From the IMG/VR virus record IMGVR_UViG_3300042860_004240, positions 1 through 64,000 of that record: a DNA stretch of 64,000 nt, one strand, 5' to 3'. This DNA comes from a virus. Taxonomy: Duplodnaviria > Caudoviricetes. Below the pieces are notes generated by a model, which saw only the letters and a program-made list of their open reading frames with translations, did not search any database and was not told the origin of the DNA. A program made the position numbers and the translations under genes. Below, one piece after another: positions 19,777 through 60,250 of the stretch. Position 1 is the stretch's first letter. Each line of letters begins with the position of its first letter.

Positions 19777-19867
19777 GCCCAAGTGGCGGAATAGGTAGAC
19801 GCAAGGGGCTTAAACCCCCTCGATTAGTCAAACAATCGTACCGGTTCGAGTCCGGTCTTGGGCACCA
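19777..19867 (+). tRNA. tRNA-Leu(UAA)
   Basis: GCCCAAG/CTTGGGC acceptor, AGGGG-CTTAAAC-CCCCT anticodon arm, long variable arm, GGTTCGAGTCC, encoded CCA. Confidence 0.95.
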
Positions 19868-22311: not shown

Positions 22312-22384
22312 GGGCCGGTAGCTCAGTGGTTAGAGCAGGGGACTCATAATCCCTTGGCCGTGGGTTCGATCCCCACTCGGCCCA
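22312..22384 (+). tRNA. tRNA(CAU), probably Ile2 (lysidine type)
   Basis: TAGCTCAGTGGTTAGAGCAG.GACTCATAATC body resembles bacterial ileX-type tRNAs; no initiator C1:A72 mismatch; no CCA. Confidence 0.88.
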
Positions 22385-22414
22385 CTACACCTATTGCATA
22401 AAGGAGAAAAAATA

Positions 22415-27608: not shown

Positions 27609-29453
27609 ATGATAGAATATTCCTTAATCCAAGATCAAGATAAATATGTTGCAGTTCGCAGCACTGTAAAATCTATGAATCTTGACCATGTTACTGATAA
27701 AGATCTTTCATCTTTTTTCACTAATTTTTCAAAATATGCTCACTTTGATACTGGCTTGTTGCCTCTTGACGGAACTGGCCTTTTGGCTTACCGGCAAGCG
27801 GGTAACCACGCACAAATTGTAGTTCAAACAGCTCCTGCCGTTTCTAGAATCTTATGGGGTGAATCAGAAGGTGGCAGAGTCCAAACATACTTTTTGGCTC
27901 AACCTTACAAGATATATATTGGAGATATACTAGACGGTAACTTTTATGGTGCTAGAATATTTTATTCTTACAATCCTATAACATCTCCTTCTCAAGAACT
28001 TTATCATACTAATCTTCCAAACATGAACTGTAGAGGCTACAGGGGCAACGCAGTTGGCTGGGTGTGCTTGTATCATACTTCTGATTGGAGCAATATTCCT
28101 CTTGGAGAAAAAGTTGCAAGATTAATTGAAAGATGTTCTGGTGATGAAGCTTACAATGATCGCAATATGAGCGAAACAGATGGACCTCGCTTTTATGCTA
28201 TGAATAAAAAGCCTAGCTATTTGTCTAACCCAGTTGAATGGGAACAGAAAACTACTGAAGAAGGATTTTTGTGGACTTTGAATGAAGGAACTTGGATACC
28301 AGTTCTAGTTCAAGATCAAGATCATCAAGATAAACATTACGAAGATGGCATTCCTTTAACTTTGGGAATGGCTTTGACTGGTGACTATCAAGCTTATTAC
28401 ACAGATAACATTAAAACTAAGCCAGTAAACAAAATAGCTCGAAAAGATAAAACATTTGATGAAGATTATGTTTTTACTTTAGTTAAAAAGTCTTATGAAC
28501 TTTCTAGATTAAAAGAACCAAAACCTGATAATCTAGATCCATATACTTATGTCCAAAAAGTTCGTGATACTCATGCTCTTTCATCTAATCCTAATGGTAA
28601 CGGTAACAGCGATAACGAAGAACACGATGAAGATGAGCAATTCTTATGCATCCATTGTGAAGAGTATTTTAGTTACAACGATGATAACCACACCGTTGTT
28701 GATGATGGCGTTCTTTGCCAAGATTGTTATAATGAAGAATATGTTTACTGCGAAAATGTTGGTAAAGATATTTCTATGCAAACAGGGAATGCTGTATATC
28801 TAGAAGAAATAGATATGTGGGTTGATGGTAATGGTCCTAACATAATTCATTGCACAGGATGTGGTCAAGTTCATTACAGCAAAAACGCTACTAATACCTT
28901 TATGGTATTTTTGAATTCTGAAACCCAAGAGTATGATTCTTGTACACAATGCTATGAATATTCTGCACAGCTTATTCAAGCAGATTGTGCAGTTTGCACT
29001 AAACCACTTCCAATGGGAAGCCAATATAGCTCTTATGTAAACTCTATATCTTTTATTGATCAAGACACTTCTCAAGTCAAAACAGCTCACATGCACAACG
29101 ATTGCTCTGTTAAAGCAGCTTCAATTGTTTGTCCTTGTGGAAAATTAAGACATGGTGAACCTTTTGGTTATGAACAAATTGTTTCTCCTGAATCCATTAA
29201 AGATATAGATTCATTTACAATGATAACTCTTAAAGATCCTTTTGATCCTTTAGCTTTAATTGCAAATTATAATAATGTCGAAAAGACTCTCAATACTGTT
29301 CCATCCTGTCAAAACGTTTGCGCTTCGTGCGTATGCTTTGATCAAGAATCTATGTCTTACAATTATGATCCTAGTAAGTTTGATTTTCAACATTATGAAT
29401 CTCTTACTAGTTTAATTTCAAAAGCCCTTAATCAAGAACAAACACAATTATAA
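27609..29453 (+). CDS. Prokaryotic E2-like protein (Prok-E2 family D/PRTRC-B-like) with C-terminal Cys-rich zinc ribbons
   Basis: LAQPYKIY...IFY...LYHTNLPN...GWVC; many CxxC motifs in C-terminal half; adjacent to JAB/E1/Ubl. Confidence 0.7.
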   Translation: MIEYSLIQDQDKYVAVRSTVKSMNLDHVTDKDLSSFFTNFSKYAHFDTGLLPLDGTGLLAYRQAGNHAQIVVQTAPAVSRILWGESEGGRVQTYFLAQPYKIYIGDILDGNFYGARIFYSYNPITSPSQELYHTNLPNMNCRGYRGNAVGWVCLYHTSDWSNIPLGEKVARLIERCSGDEAYNDRNMSETDGPRFYAMNKKPSYLSNPVEWEQKTTEEGFLWTLNEGTWIPVLVQDQDHQDKHYEDGIPLTLGMALTGDYQAYYTDNIKTKPVNKIARKDKTFDEDYVFTLVKKSYELSRLKEPKPDNLDPYTYVQKVRDTHALSSNPNGNGNSDNEEHDEDEQFLCIHCEEYFSYNDDNHTVVDDGVLCQDCYNEEYVYCENVGKDISMQTGNAVYLEEIDMWVDGNGPNIIHCTGCGQVHYSKNATNTFMVFLNSETQEYDSCTQCYEYSAQLIQADCAVCTKPLPMGSQYSSYVNSISFIDQDTSQVKTAHMHNDCSVKAASIVCPCGKLRHGEPFGYEQIVSPESIKDIDSFTMITLKDPFDPLALIANYNNVEKTLNTVPSCQNVCASCVCFDQESMSYNYDPSKFDFQHYESLTSLISKALNQEQTQL

Positions 29454-29464
29454 AGAAGGATATT

Positions 29465-31156
29465 ATGTCCAAAAAAAATGAAATAACAGAAGAAAAAGTA
29501 TATACTTTAGAAGATTTAGATTATTTCTGGCTTCCAAATGGTTCTCCTTGTTTCCTTGGGAACAAAGAAAACATTTGTGATATTATAGAAAATTTAGGTA
29601 TTAATATTTATTATTTAATATCTGATAAATCTACTTTTAAAGAATATACTCAAACTAAGCCAGCTACTTGGACCAATGGTACTCAAGTCCCTGCTACAAC
29701 AACTAAATACACTGAAGAATCTCGTGAAGCAGTTATATTTAAAGTTGTTAAAAATATGATCGGAAGAACTATTTCAGTTTCTAAAGATTCATTAGATGGG
29801 ACTTATGTTGGCTTAGAGCCGCAAGCTATATATTCTCTTCCTCCAATTCCTATGAGTATCGTCAACAAACTTGATGAATTCTTTAGATTAGTAGAAGCTC
29901 AGCTCGGCACTGAATCAATTGTCCTTTTGACTTTTGATTCTGCTAATCCAGATTCATCTGATTCTTGGGGTATTTTAGTTCCAGAACAAGAGAATACTTC
30001 AGTTCACTGCAAGTATGACCCAGATTCTATTGTAGCTATAAAGCCATATCATCTTTCTATTGTTGGATCAGTTCATTCTCATCCTGGAATGGCAGCTTAT
30101 GCTTCTGGTACAGACCATGAAGATCAAGCAGACTTTGATGGTATCCATATTACTTATGGATGGCAAAAGAATGTTAATAATGGTGCTACTCAATATTACG
30201 CAGAAATGCAAATGGCAGGAACTGCTTTTGTTCTAGACATTGAAGATGTTTTTGATCTAGATCGAACAGTAAAAGATCCTGATCCTGAAGTAATAGAATG
30301 GGCTCAAAATGTCTCAAAAAAAGCACTGCCCCCGTATTCGGCTACGGGGGTTACCAAGGGACAGCAGTACCAGCCTCTAACTCAGCCAACTATAGCAAGT
30401 TCTCCAACTATGGCGACGACTACAGCTGGTGGGGTAACTAGAAAGATCACAGATCTTGATATCCCCAAAGATGCTGTTCTTGTTGTAGAAGTAGATGATA
30501 AATCTATAGATCCTAAATGTCCACTTTGTGATTGGGAAGTATCAAATGTTGATCTTTCTAATTGCGTTTGCGGGGGATGCAACAATTATATAGCTACTCC
30601 TGGTGACACAGTACAAGAAATTATCGAACTAGTTACCTACGCTTATGAAATAAACAATGAAACTACTTACAAAACCTATGGTGCACGTCCTGCATTTACC
30701 GATATTTATTACATGTGCAAAGATGTTAACATGGAGTTTATGTTTCTTCATATTTATGGAGAAAAAGTTACAGAAGAAAGTATTGCAAAACAAATTACAG
30801 CAAGCGCTTTAAATGATGATTATGATAACCCTTGGAACGCTTATGCTGAATATACTCTTTGTTGCAATACTCATATAGATTCAATAGCTGAAAGTTGCCC
30901 TTGCAATCCGACAGTTACTGTTGACGACATGTATGATTTTGAACTTAAGTTTCCTCAATTATTTGTGTATGACGACAGCTCTAACTGTAGTGCTTGTCAA
31001 AATTATTTACAACCTACATGTACTCCATATAGGAATTTAATAATTGATTGGGCTAAAACTGGAGAAGATCCATCTAGTCCTTTTATTGAAACATGCAAAG
31101 ACTTCGTTGCGTATGATTCTCTTTATGCGTACGATAACGATAGATATCTAGATTAA
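29465..31156 (+). CDS. JAB/MPN metallopeptidase with Cys-rich C-terminus
   Basis: TESIV..VPEQ..GSVHSHPGMAAYASGTDHED (E-HxH-S-D). Confidence 0.9.
   Translation: MSKKNEITEEKVYTLEDLDYFWLPNGSPCFLGNKENICDIIENLGINIYYLISDKSTFKEYTQTKPATWTNGTQVPATTTKYTEESREAVIFKVVKNMIGRTISVSKDSLDGTYVGLEPQAIYSLPPIPMSIVNKLDEFFRLVEAQLGTESIVLLTFDSANPDSSDSWGILVPEQENTSVHCKYDPDSIVAIKPYHLSIVGSVHSHPGMAAYASGTDHEDQADFDGIHITYGWQKNVNNGATQYYAEMQMAGTAFVLDIEDVFDLDRTVKDPDPEVIEWAQNVSKKALPPYSATGVTKGQQYQPLTQPTIASSPTMATTTAGGVTRKITDLDIPKDAVLVVEVDDKSIDPKCPLCDWEVSNVDLSNCVCGGCNNYIATPGDTVQEIIELVTYAYEINNETTYKTYGARPAFTDIYYMCKDVNMEFMFLHIYGEKVTEESIAKQITASALNDDYDNPWNAYAEYTLCCNTHIDSIAESCPCNPTVTVDDMYDFELKFPQLFVYDDSSNCSACQNYLQPTCTPYRNLIIDWAKTGEDPSSPFIETCKDFVAYDSLYAYDNDRYLD
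30316..30351 (+). other. Putative -1 programmed ribosomal frameshift signal
   Basis: In-frame A_AAA_AAA, 6-nt spacer, CCCCCGTA-TTCGGC-TACGGGGG hairpin. Confidence 0.65.
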
Positions 31157-31175: not shown

Positions 31176-31943
31176 ATGTCAGATCAAAATGAAACAAAAC
31201 AACATCGGTTTATACTCATCGGTGCTGGTGGAATTGGTACTTGGTTAGCTGCTGGTTTAGTGCGGCTACTAGAGTGGAAGTTCCCCGGCTCTGCATTGAT
31301 TATAGTCGATGGTGACACCTATGAAGAAAAGAACAAAGAACGTCAAGACTTTACAAAAATTGGCAATAAAGCCAGTGTTAAAGCATATGAGCTTTCTGTT
31401 CAATTTAACAACACCACTATTATCCCTGTACCAAAGTGGATAGTAGGCGAAAACTATGAAGGCGTTGCAGATAGCGATTCTCCTAAAATTAAAGCTTCAG
31501 ATTTAATTGCTGAAGGAGACGTTGTTTTTGCTGTAGTAGATAACTTTGCTGCTAGGAAAATTATTTTTGACGCAGCAACTTCTATAGCAAACATAGACAT
31601 TTTTACTGGCGGAAACGATGATGATTTGTTTGGCAGCATTTATCATTATCAGCGTAGGAATGGAGAAGACGTTACTGAACATCCAGTTAACTTCCATCCT
31701 GAATACGAAAATCCACCAGATAAAAACCCAGGAGAATTATCCTGTCAAGAAAGATCAGAGATAGAAGGAGGAACGCAATTGCTTGCAACAAACATGGCAG
31801 TTGCTTCGTTCTTGCTCGGTCGTGTACAGAAAACGATAGTTAATTCAGAAAGCCCTACAGAAGCAGAGATATACTTTGACTTAGGTGTAGGTAAAGCTGA
31901 ACCATATGATCGTTCACCTGTAAAAGTTAATGCCAATATATAA
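31176..31943 (+). CDS. ThiF/E1-like ubiquitin-activating enzyme
   Basis: LIGAGGIG, VDGD..E.KN..RQ.F, NKA, VDN..AR, ELSC (candidate thioester Cys). Confidence 0.92.
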   Translation: MSDQNETKQHRFILIGAGGIGTWLAAGLVRLLEWKFPGSALIIVDGDTYEEKNKERQDFTKIGNKASVKAYELSVQFNNTTIIPVPKWIVGENYEGVADSDSPKIKASDLIAEGDVVFAVVDNFAARKIIFDAATSIANIDIFTGGNDDDLFGSIYHYQRRNGEDVTEHPVNFHPEYENPPDKNPGELSCQERSEIEGGTQLLATNMAVASFLLGRVQKTIVNSESPTEAEIYFDLGVGKAEPYDRSPVKVNANI

Positions 31944-31967: not shown

Positions 31968-32222
31968 ATGCAAATTAATAGCAACAACAATGAAAACGCA
32001 TCAGGGGGTGTAGCAAACGTCCGTTTTGGCGTTTACTCACAAGCTAGCCCTGTTGCTGGAAAGAGCATCAAAGAAATTCGTGAACAGTTTTCTAAACTGT
32101 GGGGAATTCCTTCTGACGCTACAGCTTACAAGGGTAAGGACAAGATGGACGAAGACTACGTTGTCCAGCAGAATGACAACCTTGAGTTCCACCGCCGTGC
32201 TGGTGAAAAAGGTAGTCTCTAA
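31968..32222 (+). CDS. Ubiquitin-like beta-grasp protein
   Basis: 84 aa, GKSI.EIR...DYVV..ND.LEF.RRAGEKG-SL; directly after E1. Confidence 0.8.
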   Translation: MQINSNNNENASGGVANVRFGVYSQASPVAGKSIKEIREQFSKLWGIPSDATAYKGKDKMDEDYVVQQNDNLEFHRRAGEKGSL

Positions 32223-32305: not shown

Positions 32306-33934
32306 ATGGAATATATGATACTCGAACAAATTAAATTAGGAACTCCACTATTGTGGATTAAAACAGAAGATATTGACAGGATTAATGACTTTGTAATTAA
32401 TTCTAAAATTAGAGATTTTTATAGCATTATTCCAAATTTAGGTTTTTCCAAATTAGTAGATAAAACCTGGAAACCAGTATTAGTAGATTTTCCTAATCCA
32501 GACGATGGAAGCATTACTCAAGACACAACATACGATTTTGTTGTTGCTTACCAGCACTTGAAGAAGACCAACGAAAGTATGTCTTCAATTGCTTTTATTC
32601 ATAGCTTTTATACTGATCCAAAAAGCTTTCTTGAAGCATACGGCCCAGTTATGTCTTCATTCAACCACTTTTATAGGAACTCTTTCTTTGCAGATGATGT
32701 AACCCTTCTGCCAATGCAAAATATATTTATTTCAAGTTTTGATTGCCCGGAAGAGTATGCTTCTATTTTTAGTATCAATAATTCTGAGCCTTTATCTATA
32801 GGAGAAATGCTTGAAATTTTGAACCACTTTGCTACCATAAGCGACAATTTGTTTGTAGAAGATGGTACCGCACAAGATATTGCTCGCAGTGCATTAGGTT
32901 TATCTGAGTCTGTTTTTATTAATCTTTGTTTACTTTCTATTATTAAAAACAAAGTAATATCTTCTAAGTATATTTATGACACTAAAATGTCTAAAATAAA
33001 ACAGAGTGGAATTTTAGAAATCATTAAACCTAAAATGACATTTGATAATATCGGTGGATTAGATAATGCTAAAGATATTATCAAGAAGAATGTATGGTTG
33101 TGGAATAACCCAGAAGAAGCTAAGAAATTTGGTGTTCAGCCTATTAGAAGAATACTAATGGTTGGAGTTCCAGGTACTGGCAAGTCTGCTATTTGTGAAG
33201 CTACTGCTCATGAATTAGGTCTTGATTTGGCTAGAACTGGAGTCAGCCAAGTTATGAATTCTTTTGTTGGTCAATCAGAAGCCAACATGAGAGCTGTCTT
33301 TAACCAGATTAAAGTTATGGCTCCTTTGTGTGTTTGGATCGATGAGTTTGGTCGTGATATGTCAGGCGGTCAAAGTTCTTCCCATGTAGATGGTGGTACT
33401 ACCGACAGAGTTCACGGTGAATTTCTAACTGGTCTTCAAGAACTTCCTGAAAATGTTTTTCTTATTTGTGCAGCAAACCAGATTGAAAATCTAAAACCAG
33501 AAATGCTTAGAGCAGAACGTTTTGACAAGATTATATTTGTTGGTTTACCTTCACAATCAGAGCGTAAAGAAATAATTAAAATACATCTTTCTAATATTCA
33601 AACTGATCACAATTGGGATCTTGACGCTCTTGCTGAATCTACTACTGGATTTACCGGTGCAGAAATAAAGTCTTTAATTAAAGAAACTAACTTCTATGTT
33701 GTTTCTTCTGAATTGCGAACTTTAAATACTAATGATATACTTATAAAAGCACCAAAGATGCGTAATATACTTTGGAATAAGAATAGAGATTCTATTATAG
33801 GATTGTACAAGTCCGCTATTGAACAATGGGACTTTGCTTCATCTTCTCAACTAGAAGATGCCTCTAAAGTTATTTCTGGTAATTACACTTCTAGAGGTAC
33901 AGCTAAACCTACGCCTCAAAAATCTAGTTGGTAA
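32306..33934 (+). CDS. AAA+ ATPase (Ycf46/CDC48-like)
   Basis: FDNIGGL, GVPGTGKS, WIDE, AAN..L.PEMLR..RFD, GFTGAEI. Confidence 0.92.
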   Translation: MEYMILEQIKLGTPLLWIKTEDIDRINDFVINSKIRDFYSIIPNLGFSKLVDKTWKPVLVDFPNPDDGSITQDTTYDFVVAYQHLKKTNESMSSIAFIHSFYTDPKSFLEAYGPVMSSFNHFYRNSFFADDVTLLPMQNIFISSFDCPEEYASIFSINNSEPLSIGEMLEILNHFATISDNLFVEDGTAQDIARSALGLSESVFINLCLLSIIKNKVISSKYIYDTKMSKIKQSGILEIIKPKMTFDNIGGLDNAKDIIKKNVWLWNNPEEAKKFGVQPIRRILMVGVPGTGKSAICEATAHELGLDLARTGVSQVMNSFVGQSEANMRAVFNQIKVMAPLCVWIDEFGRDMSGGQSSSHVDGGTTDRVHGEFLTGLQELPENVFLICAANQIENLKPEMLRAERFDKIIFVGLPSQSERKEIIKIHLSNIQTDHNWDLDALAESTTGFTGAEIKSLIKETNFYVVSSELRTLNTNDILIKAPKMRNILWNKNRDSIIGLYKSAIEQWDFASSSQLEDASKVISGNYTSRGTAKPTPQKSSW

Positions 33935-41570: not shown

Positions 41571-42065
41571 ATGTTTGGGTGTACTTCTAAATCAATAACT
41601 GCTTTAAAAACTGAATGGAACGAAGAAAAATCTTATTCTTTTTTAAACTTTTTTATCACTTATCAAAACTGGTGCACTTACTCTACTAAAAAACTTTCTC
41701 ATTCTGAAGTTCTTGTTCTATCTGACTTGTTTTGTTTGTCTCATGGTAAGGTAGCCCCAAAACAAGATTCTGAACTTTCTTTTTGGTCAGTTCATCCTAT
41801 GAATATATTTAGATTTAAACTGTTAGATAACTTAGATTTTTCTGTTCTAAATTATCCAGACCCAGCTTATGACAAGCCCGGCTATATTGTAGAAGGCTGT
41901 TATTGGGTTAATGGTTTTATGTATCAAGTTTTAGAAGAAGACTCTAAAAACATCCTAGAATTAAATTTACTAATTGACAAACCGACTCAACAGATATATG
42001 ATTACCCTAATACCTTTATTTTAATCAACGATTTAATCAACGAATATATTACACTGCCTTCGTAG
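41571..42065 (+). CDS. Hypothetical protein
   Basis: ORF; last 10 nt overlap tRNA-Arg. Confidence 0.65.
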   Translation: MFGCTSKSITALKTEWNEEKSYSFLNFFITYQNWCTYSTKKLSHSEVLVLSDLFCLSHGKVAPKQDSELSFWSVHPMNIFRFKLLDNLDFSVLNYPDPAYDKPGYIVEGCYWVNGFMYQVLEEDSKNILELNLLIDKPTQQIYDYPNTFILINDLINEYITLPS

Positions 42066-42129
42066 CTCAGTTGGATAGAGCAACGGACTTCTAATCCGCA
42101 GGTCGTATGTTCGAATCATACCGAAGGCG
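42056..42129 (+). tRNA. tRNA-Arg(UCU)
   Basis: GCCTTCG/CGAAGGC acceptor, TAGCTCAGTTGGATAGAGC D arm, CGGA-CTTCTAA-TCCG, GTTCGAATC. Confidence 0.93.
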
Positions 42130-42321
42130 CTATGAACATAGAAAACATAGAAAATCCAGAAGAAATTCCAGAAACACCAGAACAAACATTTACAGAACGC
42201 CTAGAAGAATCTCTAGACTTTGTAGTAAATATGATGAATTCTGGGCAGCTAAATCCCGAAGATGTTTACCCTCCCGGTAGATACTCTGGGGATTAATTGC
42301 TAGATTTTATTTTAACAAGTT

Positions 42322-60175: not shown

Positions 60176-60250
<75 letters not shown>

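Follow-up and report, generated by a model that had tools for sequence, protein, structure and literature searches.

What has to be asked of the gene at 29465-31156, on the plus strand of a 64,000-nucleotide stretch of tailed-phage DNA (Duplodnaviria; Caudoviricetes; positions 1 to 64,000 of IMG/VR virus record IMGVR_UViG_3300042860_004240, the whole of which is called here the window), is whether it gives rise to one protein or to two. It codes for a JAB-type protease of 563 amino acids (aa), and a run of seven adenines followed by a hairpin rich in guanine and cytosine (GC) lies just past the end of the JAB domain. A preliminary description, made from the letters of this DNA and the list of its open reading frames (ORFs), had proposed that a programmed -1 frameshift at this place produces two isoforms. 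Comparison with relatives of the gene points to the same answer, and we put at roughly 80% the probability that a programmed -1 ribosomal frameshift site is present in 29465-31156, which would make a 325-aa form in addition to the 563-aa one. The parts of the gene to which the argument refers are listed below.

29465-31156, plus strand: JAB-protease gene, 0 frame, 563 aa, with a JAB/MPN domain, a disordered linker and a Cys-rich C-terminal region (predicted long isoform; from the ORF list)
29465-30322, plus strand: N-terminal part common to both predicted isoforms, residues 1-286, containing the JAB/MPN+ metalloprotease domain
30074-30115, plus strand: JAMM motif H204-S-H206-x7-S214-x2-D217, with E150 (29912-29914) as the upstream Glu
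30316-30322, plus strand: slippery heptamer A_AAA_AAA in X_XXY_YYZ register (TCA AAA AAA G), from the sequence
30323-30328, plus strand: spacer GCACTG, 6 nucleotides (nt), or 5 nt counting a G-U pair (sequence and RNAfold)
30329-30350, plus strand: hairpin CCCCCGTA (30329-30336) / TACGGGGG (30343-30350) with the 6-nt loop TTCGGC, the proposed stimulator
30322-30441, plus strand: -1 frame tail of 39 codons (STAPVFGYGGYQGTAVPASNSANYSKFSNYGDDYSWWGN) and its stop codon TAG at 30439-30441 (predicted short isoform)
30323-30445, plus strand: 0-frame linker, residues 287-327, rich in T, P, A and Q and overlapped by the -1 tail
30446-31156, plus strand: Cys-rich C-terminal region with conserved CxxC...CxxC pairs, in the long isoform only

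Conservation of the heptamer and the hairpin

The 0-frame codons at the site are GTC TCA (30314-16) AAA (30317-19) AAA (30320-22) GCA CTG CCC CCG TAT TCG GCT ACG GGG GTT, where the two AAA codons specify K285 and K286. The heptamer lies exactly where the preliminary description had placed it and in the TCA_AAA_AAA register, and the 6-nt spacer and the GC-rich hairpin of 8 base pairs (bp) that it had described are both found in the sequence, with a further G-U pair that extends the stem to 9 bp in RNAfold and a folding energy of -16.5 kcal/mol for the 42 nt past the heptamer. The site is also as unusual in this AT-rich gene as had been noticed, since the GC fraction is 0.48-0.51 over 30280-30459 and 0.24-0.39 in most of the gene. 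An in-register heptamer with a stem of 8-9 bp at 5-6 nt agrees with the dnaX/IS-type geometry that had been claimed for it, as known bacterial -1 sites, that of dnaX for example, have a downstream hairpin at this distance. A composite pattern (A7, 3-8 nt, C5, 3-20 nt, G5) has one match in the window and none in 100 shuffles. Single-sequence evidence for the slip site is weak, and it is the comparison with relatives that decides the case.

Scans of viral and metagenome contigs (one of them covering the best 80 of 136 relatives) yielded 123 loci, which together with the window make 124 sequences, reducing to 95 distinct 440-nt contexts and 85 distinct site sequences. A run of exactly seven adenines, in slippery register, is present in 124/124 sequences, 239 or 242 nt past the HxHP motif, and the slip site is found as well in four later loci (L130, L147, L167 and L180). 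The codon ahead of the two Lys codons is GTA or TCA, always with a final A, although gene-wide GTA makes up 24% of Val codons, TCA 18% of Ser codons and AAA 68% of Lys codons. Among the other KK dipeptides of these genes, 31/81 are written AAAAAA and only 3 of these follow an A. The three synonymous positions within the heptamer do not vary in the 124 sequences, and the third-position identity, taken over all pairs and the 79 codons upstream, is 0.47 at the median, so that synonymous sites have diverged widely in this gene, never inside the heptamer.

A second in-phase A7 occurs in the C-terminal region of L010/L011 (offset 995) and L081 (offset 941), and is not conserved elsewhere.

The sequence downstream of the heptamer is able to fold in all the relatives, with RNAfold energies for the 42 nt past the heptamer of -10.3 to -21.3 kcal/mol over the 95 contexts. 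A covariance model built on 16 sequences and searched over the site sequences finds the heptamer plus hairpin, on the plus strand, in 85/85 sources of this type, and at the equivalent site in 0/4 sources of a sister clade that is described below; the remaining 14 of its 99 matches are 13 on the minus strand (the stem is palindromic) and one stray (L124:620-645, E=0.52). The conservation of heptamer and hairpin in homologues, which the preliminary description had named as a way of checking its claim, was therefore observed for both elements (124/124 and 85/85). Pairs were counted directly on the arms, and the covariance-model alignment, in which the register of the G-run is unreliable, was left aside. 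The 85 sequences contain 41 distinct helices of 5-11 bp with a core of 4-7 C:G pairs, and the spacers are mostly 4-6 nt (strict C-run/G-run helix search on the 85 distinct sequences). The inner-stem pairs vary by lineage (GTA/TAC 14, A/T 12, GC/GC 8, G/C 6 and T/A 3), and the inner-stem Watson-Crick pairs amount to 79 against a mean of 31.3 and a maximum of 49 when the 3' arms are dealt among the sequences, with 0/2000 permutations reaching 79 in this test, which ignores shared ancestry.

Dual coding in the overlap

The -1 frame of the window is open for 39 codons after the heptamer and closes at the TAG of 30439-30441, as had been described. In 95/95 contexts it runs for 27-48 codons (median 38) before a stop, compared with a background, taken from the other codon boundaries of the same genes, that has a median of 5 codons and reaches at least 27 at 2.9% of 40,335 positions. 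The 85 distinct tails encoded in this way contain much S (19%), G (16%) and Y (12%), and have a W within the last 6 residues in 83/95 contexts and within the last 8 in 92/95, with common ends such as SWWGN (that of the window), SWYS, SWYD, GWGI and YWY. The 0-frame linker that shares this DNA is also open in every context (T 19%, P 13%, A 11% and Q 11%), and is variable, with gaps, in the alignment of the 0-frame protein.

Substitutions within the overlap were counted in 38 pairs of close relatives with equal tail length, which overlap with one another and are not independent. The differences at 0-frame codon positions 1/2/3 are 110/244/160 in the overlap and 111/56/764 in the 237 nt upstream, in the JAB region of the same pairs. 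As 0-frame position 2 corresponds to the wobble base of the -1-frame codons, the peak of substitutions there means that constraint in the overlap is stronger on the -1 frame than on the 0 frame. The same tendency is seen in the amino-acid changes, which number 210 when the overlap is read in the -1 frame against 292 for the 0 frame; 30 pairs have fewer changes in the -1 frame, 4 have equal numbers and 4 have more. Between the window and L006 there are 3 changes in the -1 frame and 11 in the 0 frame. A -1-frame stop lies one codon ahead of the heptamer in 64/95 contexts, and the upstream -1 stretch is devoid of ATG, GTG and TTG in 69/95. Because of these upstream stops and missing starts, the only way into the tail is from the 0 frame, at the A7. 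At the level of sequence comparison, the substitution pattern shows that this overlap of about 40 codons is under dual-coding selection.

A related group of proteins contains a comparable segment without any change of frame. A search with the JAB part alone retrieved 1238 proteins at E<=0.001, including a group of about 410-480 aa in which a G/Y/S-rich stretch follows the same K-K position in the 0 frame and is followed in turn by a zinc-ribbon-like CxxC...CxxC domain. Three loci of this sister clade (L124, L125 and L127, with ORFs of 420-429 aa) have neither an in-phase A7 nor a hairpin in their DNA, and a fourth (L126) has an A8 coding KKK (GTC AAA AAA AAG, with an in-phase A_AAA_AAG), no hairpin and a -1 frame of 24 codons, a combination that is probably due to chance. 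Since the sister clade codes a G/Y/S-rich segment there, the tail of the frameshift clade matches an in-frame segment of its relatives in place and composition.

Proposed mechanism and competing explanations

According to the mechanism that we propose, ribosomes on AAA-AAA (K285-K286) would meet the C/G hairpin 5-6 nt ahead and be slowed by it, and a fraction of them would slip, the two lysine tRNAs moving back by one base on A_AAA_AAA. The slipped ribosomes would append the 39-residue G/S/Y-rich tail ending in SWWGN and stop at 30439-30441, producing a JAB-plus-tail protein of 325 aa (286 + 39 by calculation, which agrees with the length first suggested), and the unslipped ones would continue through the unconstrained T/P/A/Q-rich linker into the Cys-rich region, producing the 563-aa protein. 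The slip site would in this way fix the proportion of the two forms in which a single JAMM/MPN protease is made, a protease that is itself part of a putative module with an E1-like enzyme, a ubiquitin-like (Ubl) protein with a C-terminal glycine and an AAA+ ATPase. The site appears to be genuine, a -1 frameshift site with the geometry of dnaX and with predicted products, and its gene family is new. The analysis itself shows the sequence elements and how they are conserved, selection on the -1 frame and the domain boundary; from these we infer the ribosomal nature of the shift, the making of both products, their ratio and the substrate of the protease.

Several observations weigh against a ribosomal frameshift. 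Runs of seven adenines occur in the window at chance frequency (83 found, 88.7 expected), and the fold of the 91 nt around the site is unexceptional (z = -0.47), 66/200 shuffles folding equally well or better. In E. coli A_AAA_AAA is less slippery than A_AAA_AAG. An upstream Shine-Dalgarno-like element, which dnaX has and which not every -1 site needs, is not conserved, no such word being present at -22 to -5 in 51/95 contexts; a GGAG is found upstream in 42/95, as a product of conserved E-W codons about 17-22 nt upstream. Neither the permutations nor the counts of pairs are corrected for shared ancestry, and the 95 contexts collapse to 3 clusters at 70% amino-acid identity. With respect to the hairpin, the outer extension of the stem is without covariation (22 pairs, where permutations average 19.9 and 710/2000 of them reach 22). 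The C-run and the G-run also code, in either frame, PP and GG, and constraint on the peptide could therefore account for part of the conservation of the hairpin. A purely peptide explanation of the two runs is disfavoured because CCC and GGG are rare gene-wide (14% of Pro codons and 9% of Gly codons, respectively).

The same JAB-plus-tail protein would be made by ordinary translation if RNA polymerase stuttered on the A7/T7 run and added one A to some of the transcripts. A homopolymer run suffices for this and one extra A gives exactly the -1 reading, which is a further point against the ribosome as the agent; the evidence for selection on the tail fits either route, and some bacterial dnaX genes use transcriptional slippage. 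Efficient slippage of this type, however, takes about 9 or more nucleotides in the run, and the run is exactly 7 in every sequence and never longer. The conserved hairpin, situated 5-6 nt downstream and typical of ribosomal sites, is not yet transcribed and cannot act on the polymerase. Hardly any weight attaches to an RNA-library contig (X21, covering 30217-30367, 151 nt, with 11 mismatches) that bridges heptamer and hairpin with no inserted or missing letter, contigs being assemblies that drop minor variants such as A8 transcripts and show neither strand nor level of expression; it speaks neither for slippage by the polymerase nor against it. Polymerase slippage is rated lower because the run never exceeds 7 and the conserved structure is downstream, and we consider it unlikely. 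It is very unlikely, in turn, that there is no recoding of any kind, with the A7, the C-run and the G-run kept for a 0-frame K-K-x-x-P-P...G-G and the open -1 frame a by-product of linker composition. Such an explanation would account for the invariance of K285, K286 and G322 and the near-invariance of P289 and P290 in 81 aligned sequences, and for the unexceptional fold of the single sequence, but not for the fixation of the synonymous positions of the heptamer despite the gene-wide shares of AAA (68% of Lys) and GTA (24% of Val), nor for the use of the rare CCC and GGG codons at the site. Moreover, the peak of substitutions at 0-frame position 2 (244/514) is incompatible with the 0 frame as the only coding frame, the -1 frame always closes at 27-48 codons with a conserved W-containing end, and the sister clade codes a G/Y/S-rich segment in frame.

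Two other explanations seem to us highly improbable. The -1 ORF could be an independent small overlapping gene with its own start, which in the window would be the ATG at 30298 (47 aa), and both the window and L001 have a -1-frame ATG six codons ahead of the heptamer; against this, a -1-frame stop is found one codon ahead of the heptamer in 64/95 contexts, no ATG, GTG or TTG is present upstream in 69/95 and ATG in only 13, and the tail is conserved from the heptamer onwards (S-x-P-P..G-G). Alternatively, the hairpin and the T7 of the opposite strand could form an intrinsic terminator of antisense transcription, and a consensus scan does flag the minus-strand stem 30350-30329 followed by CAGTGCTTTT as terminator-like. 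The T run, however, lies 6 nt past the stem and not 0-2 nt, all ORFs of at least 120 aa between 27 and 59 kb are on the plus strand, leaving nothing to terminate, and a terminator would explain neither the register of the heptamer nor the selection on the -1 frame.

The protease, its module and known systems

The protein made without the shift is a JAMM/MPN protease as far as motif and model can tell, with the catalytic motif and the MPN fold both present. The JAMM residues E150, H204, H206, S214 and D217 show no variation in the 81 aligned sequences. In Pfam, Prok-JAB (PF14464) matches the protein of the window at E=2.2e-4 with 21.5 bits, under the cut-off of 25, and a precomputed PF14464 match is present in many of its homologues. 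PHROGs and PADLOC searches gave no family for the protein, and a PDB sequence search retrieved just 6fjv_A at E=0.97. The AlphaFold model of the 563-aa protein has a mean predicted local distance difference test (pLDDT) score of 81 and two folded parts, residues 6-284 and 328-551, the first of them with values mostly >90 over residues 11-280 and with an N-terminal extension of about 120 residues. Foldseek searches with the JAB model produced 17 PDB matches at E<=0.001, headed by 6fnn_B (3.2e-5), a Caldiarchaeum (archaeal) Rpn11 homologue bound to ubiquitin, and 8tyx_B (8.8e-5), from a bacterial Ubl-deubiquitinase complex; 16/17 are JAMM/MPN deubiquitinases or their MPN-domain partner subunits (6fnn, 8tyx, AMSH, CSN, Rpn11 and BRCC36) and the remaining one is the Prp8 MPN domain. 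The JAMM motif and this fold match suggest that the enzyme is a deconjugase, the name given to it in the preliminary description.

The position of the slip site at the JAB domain boundary, another of the early proposals, fits the predicted structure. The last element of the JAB folded region is a helix at 274-283, which K285-K286 follow, and the residues joining the two folded parts (285-327) have pLDDT <50, so that the predicted disordered linker coincides with the -1 overlap. The Cys-rich region after it is modelled as folded, with pLDDT 86-96 in most 10-residue blocks, and eight of its cysteines (C352, C355, C369, C372, C508, C511, C519 and C544) are invariant in the alignment; these conserved Cys pairs are what suggests that the region may bind zinc. 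The 563-aa protein has 430 homologues at E<=0.001, of which the best 120 are all 534-610 aa long and have received from any source the sole name of 'hypothetical protein'.

One database homologue, P0122 (284 aa), ends 14 residues past the K-K position (...KVKKVLPRNICWRGSSRV), which may reflect the end of a contig, an error or a variant.

The protease gene, carried by a jumbo phage, is flanked by the following genes, of which the last three form the putative module with it.

27609-29453, plus strand: upstream conserved protein, 614 aa, with an N-domain and a Cys-rich C-terminal part
31176-31943, plus strand: ThiF/E1-like adenylating enzyme, 255 aa (Pfam ThiF E=6.1e-12; weak PADLOC 'E1-E2', best E=1.7e-4)
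31968-32222, plus strand: putative Ubl-like small protein, 84 aa, ending ...HRRAGEKG-SL
32306-33934, plus strand: AAA+ ATPase, 542 aa (Pfam AAA 2.7e-25 and AAA_lid_3 1.9e-7; phrog_8638 3e-71; PADLOC IetA 3.4e-30)

The 84-aa protein has no Pfam match. Among the 52 distinct small ORFs that come after the E1 gene, 44 end in ...GEKG*, two have two extra residues (L006 GSL and L053 GNI) and six, that of the window included, were mis-picked; the protein looks like a Ubl for which trimming of a precursor would be needed in some of the phages. Trimming or removal of this Ubl is most likely the function of the protease, as suggested by the adjacent E1-like gene and the small protein with its final Gly.

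The 614-aa protein has no Pfam, PHROG or PADLOC family, and its N-domain (model pLDDT 88) has 0 PDB matches at E<=0.001. Its identification as an E2, based on a motif resemblance, was considered and finds no support in the fold search, E2 chains appearing only at E=0.34-0.84 with probability <=0.08. It contains invariant C141 and C153 in an H-x-N-x-P-N...G-W-x-C-L-Y stretch.

Relatives of the AAA+ ATPase (five of them complete) were obtained by a genome search. A W or F is present in the last three residues of the ATPase in 6/6 sequences (the window and L173-L179), whose ends (KSSW, KSNW, GFKW, AWKI, TWKI and PVFK) recall the aromatic end of the JAB -1 tail.

The proposed site can be compared with several known systems, of which dnaX of E. 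coli, with its tau and gamma products, is the nearest in mechanism. In both cases an A-rich X_XXY_YYZ heptamer is, or would be, read by lysine tRNAs with a stem-loop a few nt downstream, and the shifted ribosome stops soon, so that the frameshift product is shorter and is devoid of the C-terminal domains. The differences are that the heptamer is A_AAA_AAG in dnaX and A_AAA_AAA here, that the conserved upstream Shine-Dalgarno-like stimulator of dnaX is absent here, that the -1 extension is of about one codon there and of 27-48 codons under selection here, and that dnaX is unrelated to the JAB protease gene. The OrfAB transposases of the IS1/IS3 families share the A_AAA_AAA or A_AAA_AAG heptamers and the downstream structures in bacteria, although the product of the shift in those elements is a longer transposase, joined from two ORFs, and here the shift would end the protein early.

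On the side of the enzyme, the comparison is with prokaryotic JAB/MPN+ deconjugases of Ubl systems, CBASS Cap3 among them. The Bil-type enzyme of PDB 8tyx and the archaeal Rpn11 of PDB 6fnn share with the phage protein the JAMM motif E...HxHx7Sx2D and the MPN fold; the phage protein differs in being phage-encoded, in its N-terminal extension and Cys-rich C-terminal region, and in having no PADLOC or PHROG family. A JAB gene beside those of an E1-like enzyme and a Ubl-like protein has been described for bacteria, a neighbourhood like the present one, in the available text of PMC1779556. The word 'frameshift' has 0 occurrences in the available text of PMC1779556 and PMC7824862, two papers on Ubl systems, and full-text literature searches pairing frameshift with JAB, JAMM, ThiF or phages returned nothing on this case.

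In phages, the best known sites of this type are those of tail assembly chaperones, the kind to which 2397/2476 joined frameshift genes in SEA-PHAGES genomes belong according to the available part of PMC10885494, in which JAB has 0 occurrences. The tail assembly chaperone (lambda G/GT) resembles the present case in that a conserved -1 frameshift in tailed phages sets the ratio of two proteins with a common N-terminus, and differs from it in that the shifted product is longer and the gene structural, whereas here the product would be shorter and the gene encodes an enzyme in a Ubl/E1/AAA+ module. The mechanism is of a known kind; what is new is the gene family, together with the long trans-frame tail under selection and the setting in a phage Ubl module.

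The proposed -1 frameshift, conserved in a gene for a phage enzyme, stands apart from annotated phage frameshifts, which are nearly all in tail chaperones in the available part of PMC10885494, and this one has the support of >120 independent assemblies. Gene callers give the 563-aa form only, and the predicted 325-aa isoform is consequently missing from protein databases. The 41 distinct helices constitute a compact natural set of heptamer-plus-hairpin elements for the study of bacterial frameshift stimulators. If the proposal is true, a phage Ubl/E1/JAB/AAA+ module would be regulated by the ratio of two isoforms, which would provide a handle on the role of the module in infection. A bolder and unlikely possibility is that the frameshift serves as the stoichiometry device of a phage-built counterpart of the proteasome lid, in which the G/S/Y-rich tail of the short form, with the W motif at its end, would be a peptide that docks the Rpn11-like JAB protease on the AAA+ unfoldase of the module, itself ending in a W/F motif, or on a shared partner, and the long form would find Ubl-tagged targets by means of its Cys-rich region; a jumbo phage would then have a self-contained machine to tag, unfold and detag proteins, with its subunit ratio written in an RNA hairpin.

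The window belongs to a linear virus record of 81,065 bases that is rated 38% complete. Complete records exist for five relatives, which measure 205,907-267,766 bases, and terminal repeats are present in three of the five. The largest, G005 (267,766 bases, a complete jumbo phage), carries the whole module twice, with two JAB genes (L010 and L130), both with slip site and hairpin, and two AAA+ genes (L174 and L179). The tRNA genes of the window are Leu-taa (19777-19867), Met-cat (22312-22385) and Arg-tct (42056-42130) on the plus strand and Gly-tcc (60177-60250) on the minus strand, with no lysine tRNA gene among them. A tblastn search against 50,697 reference phage records gave no match, and these records offer no relative from an isolate. 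The DNA of the window is present whole in 19 lake-water metagenome runs, each of them a possible source, and contigs of five RNA-library runs contain small shares of its sequence. The sole match in the prokaryote genome collection is L180, on a 22,349-base contig of a metagenome-assembled genome labelled Cyclobacteriaceae, where the site reads GTA AAA AAA G, the stem is CCCCCAC/GTGGGGG and the tail has the end NYSNWYS; the contig may come from a phage and have been binned with this genome, or it may hint at the host.

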